From: Saccostrea cucullata
Lineage: Eukaryota
DNA: 64,000 bases
Reading direction: 5' to 3'
NCBI RefSeq assembly: GCF_032062105.1
Contig: NW_026941189.1
Coordinates: 1-64,000 of the forward strand
Shown here: positions 28,453 through 30,514 of the stretch, piece after piece
How the letters are laid out: each line of letters opens with the position of its first letter
Numbering within the stretch: position 1 is the first letter of the stretch
Translations under genes and position numbers: made by a program
The notes under the pieces: model-generated
The model's input: the letters and a program-made list of their open reading frames with translations, nothing else
What the model was told of the DNA's origin: nothing
Databases searched by the model: none

Positions 28453-30514
28453 ATGGTATGTATGTTTTTAATTCCAATCTAAATATTAAAGTAATTTTTA
28501 TCACTTTACATACCGGTAATCTTGCCAACTTTGAATCATTAGACATATTAGGGTGTACATGTTTTGCACATAGGTGTAAATTGTTTTCGCAGTCATCCTC
28601 TAGAAATTCAATAGGCTTATTTTGAGCTTGTTGAAAAAAATTAATTGGTAAAGTATATGCATCTTTTCAGCATATTTATACCTGTTATCTGATGACAGTT
28701 TAAAAACAAGACTTATAAATAAGTGTAATAAGAGGCAGATTTTGTAAATTAAAAGAGTTTAAAAGCGGGTATGGTTTGCAAACTTTGAATAGACATATTA
28801 GGGTGTACATTGTTTTGCACATATACTAGTATAATTCTAGAAAGATTTGTTAAGTATACTTTTATTGGAAATTTGTTTTAAAAAATAATAATAAATTGGG
28901 AGATGGAATTGTGAATAATGACTTGGAGAATGTAGGATAATTGATCTTTAAAAAGTGATAAATAAGAAACACCAAATCTACCTTCAATTACATTATAAAT
29001 AACACTTGAAAACAACTGTTTTTTAGGCAACCACAATTTCCTTAGAGGATCTGATGACTCAAAGTGGACAGGTTCCTTATACCAAAAGTTTAAAGATTCA
29101 AGTTGTTGCCATCACCGATGTAGTGAACTATAGAAACGACAAAAATGAAAGCAAAAGTCTAATGAATGCTGCTGTTGTGGATCACTCAAAAGCAGTAAAG
29201 TGCACGATCTATGACTCAACAAAGTTTCCTAGATTTAAAGAAGGACAGTACCTCATTTTACGAAATGTCATCAAGAAAACGGATGGAGTAGTTGTAACAT
29301 CAAACACGAAAGTATTTACTTGTGCACCTTTTGCATTTGAAATCCCAGCAGCCATACAGCAACGTGGGAGAGAAATATTAAATCCTCCTCCAGCACCAGT
29401 GGTAAATGTGAAAGAGGCACTTGACTCTCCACCTAAAGCAAGGGTTACAGTCAGAGGCAAAGTGGTTCAGGTAAGGTGTGTTTTATATATGTTTGACATA
29501 ATAATTCTTTTAGTTGCTTTAATTTATATTGAGAGTGCTTTGTAAGAATTAAAATAAAAAGAAGTATTTCTAAAAATACAAAGTGATGTCCGTTAAAAGA
29601 GGCGTACAAGTAATATATCAACTCAAGATCATTAATAATTTTTCCTTAAGATTTTACATACAAGTAGATGACATTGGAAAAAAGTTATTGTTTATTACCA
29701 TATTGAAATTATTATTTTAAAATATTGTATATTTTGAATTTAACAATTACAGGAAGAAGCAACGAGAGAAGTGTTATTCAAAGAAGAGAAGACAAAAGTA
29801 AAGAACATCTACATTGAAGATACATCTTCCAGATGTAAAGTTGCTCTCTGGAGAGAAAATACAGAAGAAAATGTTCGACCTGGGGATTATGTTCAAATAA
29901 CTGACGTAGTGACAAATTCTTATCGGAATGAAGTGTCACTTTCAACAACCTTCAGGACAAAGATTAGCGTATGTACATGTATTAATGCTGAATTGAAATT
30001 TGTGGAAAATTTATTTAATCAAAGTATAAGAAAGGAAATCCATTTTAAACTTATCATTATTTAACACTTTTCTACACACGGAAATCATTAAAAAGTATCA
30101 CTTATTAATATTTTGCACCTCATATACATATTATTTTTAATTCTGATTTTGAATACAGTATAGTAAATTTTAACCTGAATGGCTATTAGATGTCTTTGTG
30201 TAAATATAAATATTGACAACAAATACATGTTTCGGATATTTCTTTTATTGCAGAAAATAGAGTGCCCCGCAGAAACCACCACACATGAGTGCATGTCAGC
30301 ATGCATTGAAGACAATACAGCAACTTTCCTGCTATGTGACGACACAATCATAACATTGCCAAAACAACTTGTACAAGTGGCACTTCCAGATGTAAAAGTC
30401 AACGACTTGGAGTCTCATTTAATGGCTATGTTTACACCAACTCTAAAAATAAAATGCACATCACGTGGAGACAGAGTTTCCTCTTTGGAAATTATGCCCA
30501 CAAAAGCCGAATAG
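28453..30514 (+). CDS. Spliced tandem OB-fold ssDNA-binding (RPA/SSB-like) protein, 307 aa, inside the Helentron
   Basis: Exons 28453-28455 (ATG|gtatgt), 29027-29470, 29753-29968 and 30254-30514, all phase-0 GT-AG and stop-free. OB motifs AAVVDHSKAVKCTIYD...FKEGQYLILRNV and RVTVRGKVVQ...NIYIEDTSSRCKVALW...PGDYVQITDV. Confidence 0.82.

Follow-up and report, generated by a model that had tools for sequence, protein, structure and literature searches.

The 64,000 nucleotides analysed here (the window), from contig NW_026941189.1 of the oyster Saccostrea cucullata, contain a 17-kb Helentron within which lies a four-exon gene for a predicted tandem OB-fold protein (the OB gene). With moderate confidence, corresponding to a probability of roughly 0.6, we read this gene from its sequence as a spliced and transcribed accessory of the Helentron, whose product would coat the single-stranded DNA displaced by the element's RepHel protein during rolling-circle transposition. 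The rationale for this statement is the combination of a predicted OB-OB fold with two retained base-stacking aromatic residues, for which the best reading is an accessory protein that binds single-stranded DNA (an SSB). We regard the OB gene as a real Helentron accessory gene; cargo of this kind was known before, but the variant is a distinct one. Its value lies in a likely tie to the HIN-200 domain of mammalian DNA sensors and in fish proteins that fuse the same module to PYRIN.

The Helentron extends from 26748 to about 43774. Its left end (26748..26759, + strand) is a 12-bp subterminal inverted repeat that follows a T run and whose nested inverted repeat folds into a strong hairpin (-10.3 kcal/mol, z -4.1), and its right end (43738..43774) consists of the matching subterminal repeat at 43738-43749, a weak 3' hairpin at about 43750-43772 (z -0.9) and a T-rich flank after it. 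The end repeats are perfect, and the window has two copies of the 12-bp sequence, one at 26748 (+) and the other at 43738 (-), against a chance expectation of 0.08. The element matches the Helentron ends described in the available sections of PMC4067079, namely subterminal inverted repeats of 12-15 bp, a 3' hairpin and a T-rich insertion target. Among the four runs examined over the whole element, a contig of run X9 clearly joins 26747 to 43775 and thus represents an empty site, which is supported by a contig of run X2 that places left-flank letters beside 43772. The 17-kb insertion is therefore polymorphic, and the earlier note's claim that the gene is carried by a transposon is borne out, because the OB gene lies between the subterminal repeats and the empty site maps the same ends.

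The RepHel ORF (34373..40399, + strand) encodes 2008 aa with Herpes_teg_N, DUF6570 (Pfam E 7e-20), Helitron_like_N with HUH and Tyr motifs, a PIF1 helicase and an endonuclease. The endonuclease end runs on in another frame to about 40560; the Exo_endo_phos match (E 4e-4) is below the cut-off and split by a frame break in 40385-40560 that may be real or an assembly error. The HUH, Tyr and PIF1 helicase motifs, the AP endonuclease fused to RepHel and the DUF6570 marker are features of HLE2 elements, and the element has the domains (Herpes_teg_N, endonuclease) of subgroup b of HLE2 in the HELIANO classification. Contig cover of RepHel was slight or nil in three of the four runs, contigs being unable to show absence. 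A second spliced transcript (33378..42685, + strand; exons 33378-33506, 40711-40930, 41192-41390 and 42162-42685) has its first two joints in 3/4 runs and its third in 2/4, and its intron 1 holds the entire RepHel ORF; alternative splicing of its first exon could provide a control of RepHel. A search for a long ORF across these spliced exons found none. Exon 3 of this transcript is the best match to the OB family elsewhere in the window (E 6e-4; probability 83%) and for this reason is probably a decayed second copy of an OB2 of the family, while the last exon has no match to it. Nested within the Helentron are also a MITE-like element with 35-nt terminal inverted repeats (31607-32150) as well as what is, judged by eye, probably the 3' stub of a LINE with a terminal (TTAC)n (32524-33012).

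All four exons of the OB gene are on the + strand. Joining of ORFs gives a first exon whose coding part is ATG alone (28453..28455), with its junction seen in run X4, and an HIN-like exon 2 of 148 codons (29027..29470) that encodes OB1, a linker helix and the first strand of OB2. Exon 3 (29753..29968; 72 codons) encodes the remainder of OB2, including an invariant Trp and a conserved Tyr, and exon 4 (30254..30514; 86 codons plus stop) encodes an acidic, weakly OB-like C-terminal domain. The introns of 571, 282 and 285 nt are all GT..AG and phase 0, and the spliced product has 307 codons with 0 internal stops, in agreement with the four-exon, stop-free structure proposed previously by ORF joining in the window. 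GC content is 37-41% in exons 2-4 and 22-27% in the introns. Position 28453 is the sole ATG followed by GTA or GTG in 26751-29000, and the sequence upstream of exon 1 is present from 28126 in a contig. Moreover, the close homologues P0003-P0005 have Met followed directly by exon-2 sequence, which supports an ATG-only exon 1.

Is this structure reflected in transcripts? Junctions were sought in Logan assembled contigs from eight of 24 listed public runs, which are mostly RNA by automated guess only; contigs that skip introns nonetheless represent spliced molecules. Since the runs were picked by the OB gene itself, their cover of it is guaranteed by choice. Intron 1 is spliced out in 1/8 runs (X4; the short side of the junction has 29 letters), intron 2 in 4/8 (X1, X2, X4, X18) and intron 3 in 6/8 (X1, X7, X2, X4, X18, X9), such that every proposed junction has been seen. 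For run X22, taken as raw reads, only 9 reads could be placed and 0 of these showed a junction. Contigs with spliced exons 2-4 continue into intron 1 in three of the eight runs (X1, X2, X18), indicating that a second form starting at Met11 also exists. The RefSeq model LOC134257373 (P0002) represents this form, being identical to residues 11-307 of the 307-aa product, and the previous description of the gene as hidden was therefore overstated. Contig rows contain 11 exon variants (4 silent, 6 missense, 1 stop) from mixed copies and individuals, from which selection is not readable.

The AlphaFold model of P0002 (mean pLDDT 87.8, pTM 0.63) has two OB folds, OB1 and OB2, with a linker helix between them and a third domain after them. 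The two OB folds claimed from the sequence are supported by this model and by fold searches that included Foldseek, and the arrangement of OB1 and OB2 around a helical linker is that of HIN-type architecture. OB2 superimposes on the Sulfolobus SSB with Z 15.1 and rmsd 1.6 Å over 100 aligned residues, and Trp182 and Tyr206 (Trp172 and Tyr196 of P0002) align with SsoSSB W56 and F79, two of the three base-stacking residues described in the accessible text of PMC5027503. An equivalent of the third stacking residue, W75, is not kept in OB2. The Trp182 and Tyr206 positions are aromatic in 100% and 90%, respectively, of 31 aligned relatives, many basic residues are conserved, and in 10/10 homologues checked a basic N-terminal 71%, comprising the OB pair, is followed by an acidic tail. 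P0002 has no CxxC, and the RPA70 DBD-C zinc ribbon is thus absent, as had been stated. The C-terminal domain, previously put at about 85 aa, is present with 86 residues and acidic, and its fold is weakly OB-like: folded alone (pLDDT 85.6), it gives weak and mostly OB-type matches (best Z 5.2, rmsd 4.1, 73 aligned) and no Foldseek match at E 0.001 or better, which is not proof of a new fold. The top Pfam match of P0002, SHLD2_OB1 (33.5 bits, above the cut-off), was rejected as an identity because it covers OB2 alone and is a generic OB match.

Which known OB proteins are closest to this one? With exon 2 as query against PDB sequences, the best eight matches are all HIN-200 chains. HIN also leads with a 16-member profile, where RPA70 is absent from the 23 hits, with a 31-member profile of relatives without PYRIN, where the range for single HIN chains is 28-44 bits against 22.6 for human RPA70AB, and with a 44-member broad profile, where p202 reaches 54.8 bits over both OB folds against 34.9 for RPA70AB. 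With a fish-only profile, RPA70AB (41.7 bits) is at or above single HIN chains (18-39 bits). Of these four profile searches, three thus favor HIN over RPA70 and the last is a tie; the structural comparison is a tie as well, with Z 15.1 for HIN (rmsd 7.2, 190 aligned) and 14.4 for RPA70AB (rmsd 8.1, 193 aligned). In the Foldseek listing, HIN fills every row given for ranks 1-19, and RPA70 first appears at rank 22. The two OB folds differ in this respect, in that OB1 is nearest HIN in sequence and OB2 alone is nearest an archaeal SSB (45.6 bits). UniProt automatically names some family members 'HIN-200 domain-containing', and in structure alignments the OB protein is 10-19% identical to HIN. Against the gathering score of 22.7 for Pfam HIN (PF02760), P0002 scores 18.7 and exon 2 scores 21.4 (E 2e-4), both below it.

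Taken together, no non-mammalian group is likely to be closer kin to the HIN-200 domain than this family proteins or AIM2-like receptors; 2oq0, 4l5q, 5z7d, 3rn2). The family shares with HIN-200 the tandem OB pair with helical linker, the top profile matches and intron boundaries. It differs from HIN-200 in being transposon-borne, in lacking PYRIN, in its extra 86-aa third domain, in the SSB-type aromatics of OB2 and in its sub-cut-off score. RPA70 DBD-A/B/C has the same OB-OB-(OB-like) layout, whereas the OB protein lacks the zinc ribbon and the N-terminal OB, is multi-copy and mobile, and matches RPA70 weakly, in keeping with the earlier note's view that it is only distantly related to host RPA. 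Crenarchaeal SSB and hSSB1 (1o7i, 2mna, 5d8e) are the best match to OB2 alone; they have one OB only and do not match OB1, and the equivalents of W56 and F79 are kept in the OB protein whereas that of W75 is lost. Baculovirus LEF-3, a multi-OB SSB that partners a helicase, is the top viral fold match (E 7e-10), a likeness at fold level only (TM about 0.25, 10% identity). HIN domains mostly bind double-stranded DNA, and for this reason kinship to HIN does not settle whether the OB protein binds single- or double-stranded DNA. The note's proposal of a dedicated SSB retains the backing of the two stacking aromatics, but it missed that, among solved structures, the OB pair has its closest relatives in HIN-200 proteins (AIM2, IFI16, p202), and that relatives in fish carry PYRIN.

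Gene structure lends independent support to the HIN tie, in that the three introns of the OB gene correspond to the borders of the two HIN exons, at which HIN is cut in Supplementary Figure 3 of PMC3458909, according to its legend. At the first boundary, the 13th residue in the p204 row is the partner of exon-2 residue 13; in the AIM2 rows the start is one codon earlier, and the available portions of that paper describe the marsupial start as unclear. At the last boundary, the final residue of exon 3 pairs with the final residue of the p202 row. In IFI16 and AIM2, the first HIN exon starts and ends in phase 0 and ends at the end of the first OB2 strand (Supplementary Figure 5 of the same paper, as available). 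At this middle boundary, HIN and the OB gene have the same 22 residues from the preceding helix to the exon end in an ungapped hand register, where the HMMER alignment opens a 6-column gap. Phase 0 was seen in HIN for the first two boundaries, and the third was compared by position only. Since exon shuffling can bring boundaries at domain edges into agreement, most of the weight rests on the internal intron. The comparison of intron positions covered HIN and the OB family.

A family profile retrieved 951 proteins at E 0.001 or better, the best 150 of which were examined. Named members (22 of the 30 looked up) come from bivalves, a nemertean, sea cucumbers, a newt, a sturgeon and ray-finned fish. 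Relatives are tied to RepHel elsewhere: among 185 collected proteins, four (from Mya, two Holothuria and Apostichopus) are automatic gene models in which RepHel sequence is fused to an OB part that lies downstream of it, and these occupy four separate places in the tree. Intron positions look conserved when read from protein sequences, since, of 158 family domain hits, 32 stop precisely where exon 2 ends and 16 at the end of exon 3 or one before it. Saccostrea cucullata has a second annotated copy that is 94% identical. P0008 (Mya arenaria) and P0011 (Crassostrea virginica), from distant bivalves, are 96% identical over 236 aa, whereas copies within one oyster species are 49-52% identical, and this sequence contrast suggests horizontal transfer of a Helentron, or contamination. 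In the Atlas, the look-alikes that come after the family's own clusters are RPA-like proteins of archaea. Profile A2, scanned against metagenome and viral contigs, gave 128 and 59 pattern matches, respectively, and 0 confirmed loci. Across invertebrates, Helentrons likely carry the family along, and hosts likely tamed it on more than one occasion. Members without PYRIN include newt P0046 and P0051, so that the family is present in tetrapods, which bears on a route to mammals, and sturgeon P0163, whose source flags possible contamination. A Pinctada gene model (P0057) joins a family member to a piece that resembles a Tc1-type transposase by eye and has no Pfam hit.

In a tree of 53 of 55 rows, from which two RPA-like outgroup rows were dropped for short cover, the 17 fish rows form one clade (support 100/99). 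Ten fish members were named, and the branching roughly follows the species, with bowfin, bonefish, pike and whitefish, and then spiny-rayed fish. The alignment of the fish members to the profile of relatives without PYRIN spans all three domains (E 4e-51). In a Pfam scan of the 17, 6 pass the PYRIN cut-off, 8 pass the HIN cut-off and 3 pass both (pike, sea bass and tuna), and the remaining members in alignment A4 mostly share the same N-terminal block; a PYRIN domain is absent from the oyster protein in the same kind of scan. The clusters next to the pike protein in the Atlas after its own are those of IFI203 and IFI16 (0.87 and 0.86), which serve as leads only. On sequence grounds, the ray-finned fish genes look like a tamed host gene with AIM2-like layout. 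The tree did not include mammalian HIN, and the fish-profile search returned 10 proteins, none a mammalian PYHIN. Proteins with PYRIN, the HIN-like OB pair and the third domain include P0095, P0178, P0143, P0059 and P0094, among others, and the clade looks vertically inherited. The tuna model has a duplicated PYRIN-OB1 unit, and P0182 of Sander lucioperca is a PYRIN-CARD protein, a candidate adaptor or PYRIN donor, whose PYRIN is 42% identical to that of pike.

RepHel proteins nick at the element end and unwind the DNA in known Helitron biology. In the model that we favor, the oyster RepHel, in which the corresponding motifs are present, would nick the element end and unwind it, and the basic OB1-OB2 pair would bind the released strand, with OB2 stacking bases via Trp182 and Tyr206 as expected from homology. 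The acidic third domain might be a weak third OB or a protein-contact surface. One alternative hypothesis is that the protein binds double-stranded DNA through the backbone in the manner of HIN, and would hold the element ends or circular double-stranded intermediates together or mask them from host DNA sensors. The proximity of OB1 to HIN in sequence, the many conserved basic residues and the HIN-dsDNA complexes at the top of the fold lists point in this direction. However, OB2 keeps the SSB-type Trp and Tyr on a fold that matches SsoSSB closely, and accessory genes of SSB type are known in other Helitrons (PMC4683698 and PMC4067079, in the sections available), which makes binding of double-stranded DNA as the main role unlikely in our estimation.

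A different concern is whether the gene serves the transposon at all. Helitrons capture genes, and HELIANO, in the parts of the text available (PMC11417382), calls such domains captures that are possibly non-essential. Under this hypothesis, the OB gene would be a host gene captured in the distant past and without a role in transposition, and its likeness to HIN would come from a shared RPA-like or archaeal-SSB-like ancestor, such that HIN would not be transposon-derived. The ties with RPA70 in the fish-profile search and in structure Z, as well as the archaeal RPA-like look-alikes in the Atlas, would fit such an origin. We nevertheless consider it quite improbable, given the intact frames and the intron positions kept across phyla, the repeated ties to RepHel, and the finding that, among solved structures, no host source gene is closer than HIN. 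The chance that this copy now serves the oyster more than the element, as a tamed DNA-binding or immune gene, appears very small. Spliced contigs of the gene in 6/8 runs, the endonuclease frame break in this RepHel copy and the tamed appearance of the fish relatives would be consistent with host use, but the insertion is polymorphic with perfect end repeats, a second near-identical copy is annotated in the same species, and the runs were found with this very gene.

If the OB gene is a Helentron accessory SSB, how does HIN relate to it? By our inference, the family would have been tamed by hosts through PYRIN fusion in ray-finned fish and through loss of the third domain on the way to mammalian HIN. 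We lean, by a modest degree, toward the hypothesis that the HIN-200 domain is itself a tamed Helentron accessory, in which exons 2 and 3 with the three introns became the two HIN exons, and that ray-finned fish, having a PYRIN fusion of the same module, hold an unrecognised family of AIM2-like receptors that arose by parallel capture or are distant PYHIN orthologues. Because the helper gene shares the HIN fold, the best sequence scores and the exon boundaries, this origin is directly testable. If true, cytosolic DNA sensing would join the immune inventions drawn from mobile elements. The fish PYRIN-OB-OB proteins are candidates for a DNA sensor in a group thought to be without PYHIN genes. For transposon biology, the gene defines the putative accessory protein of endonuclease-bearing Helentrons and supplies residues for mutation.

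Prior literature places the gene among known cargo. The sections of HELIANO (PMC11417382) available list HIN, RPA and Ssb-like_OB as HLE2 cargo, with HIN near-confined to HLE2 and read as a capture and with HLE2 RPA limited to subgroup a, and its abstract and parts of its text and Table S11 draw no link to the origin of PYHIN. Plant PHRPA and divergent RPA homologues of zebrafish and sea-anemone Helitrons are cited in the part of PMC4683698 available, and the OB family may be the same as these divergent genes and may already stand as RPA-like in Repbase reports. The RPA-like accessory genes of Helentrons and Helitrons are likewise separate OB-fold genes within a rolling-circle element and presumed single-stranded DNA helpers. 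The mite Helentron RPA, as given in the available text of PMC4067079, is intronless with a strong match to RPA1 DBD-A/B, whereas the oyster OB gene is interrupted by three introns and lies closer to HIN than to RPA70. The idea of an uncharacterised family is thus correct insofar as the variant is distinct but goes too far for the kind of cargo, which was listed and cited before. Section 10 of PMC3458909 finds no HIN trace outside mammals and no close relative; PMC13253634 (2026) dates PYHIN to therians with its source unnamed in the available text; and the available parts of PMC3478938 and PMC6335826 add nothing on HIN origin. No paper was found that derives HIN from Helitrons or Helentrons or describes fish PYRIN-HIN-like proteins, which is weak evidence of novelty as most subscription journals lay outside the search.

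The window holds several features outside the Helentron. A single long ORF on the minus strand (23217-25256), 1.5 kb outside its left end, encodes a 679-aa Mab-21/cGAS-like nucleotidyltransferase with TPR repeats, and a partial second copy lies near 20428-20640. Two Cys/His-rich open frames of 421 and 147 codons (62508-63773 and 44586-45029, both on the + strand) have no Pfam match at the cut-off and are probably other transposon genes. Positions 600-7000 form a tandem array of units of about 1.2 kb, each with a 111-codon minus-strand frame. Finally, a Gypsy-type LTR retrotransposon occupies 45610-54400. Its long direct repeats are nearly identical and spaced about 7.55 kb from each other, and the minus strand carries its ORFs for gag, protease, RT, RNase H and integrase.
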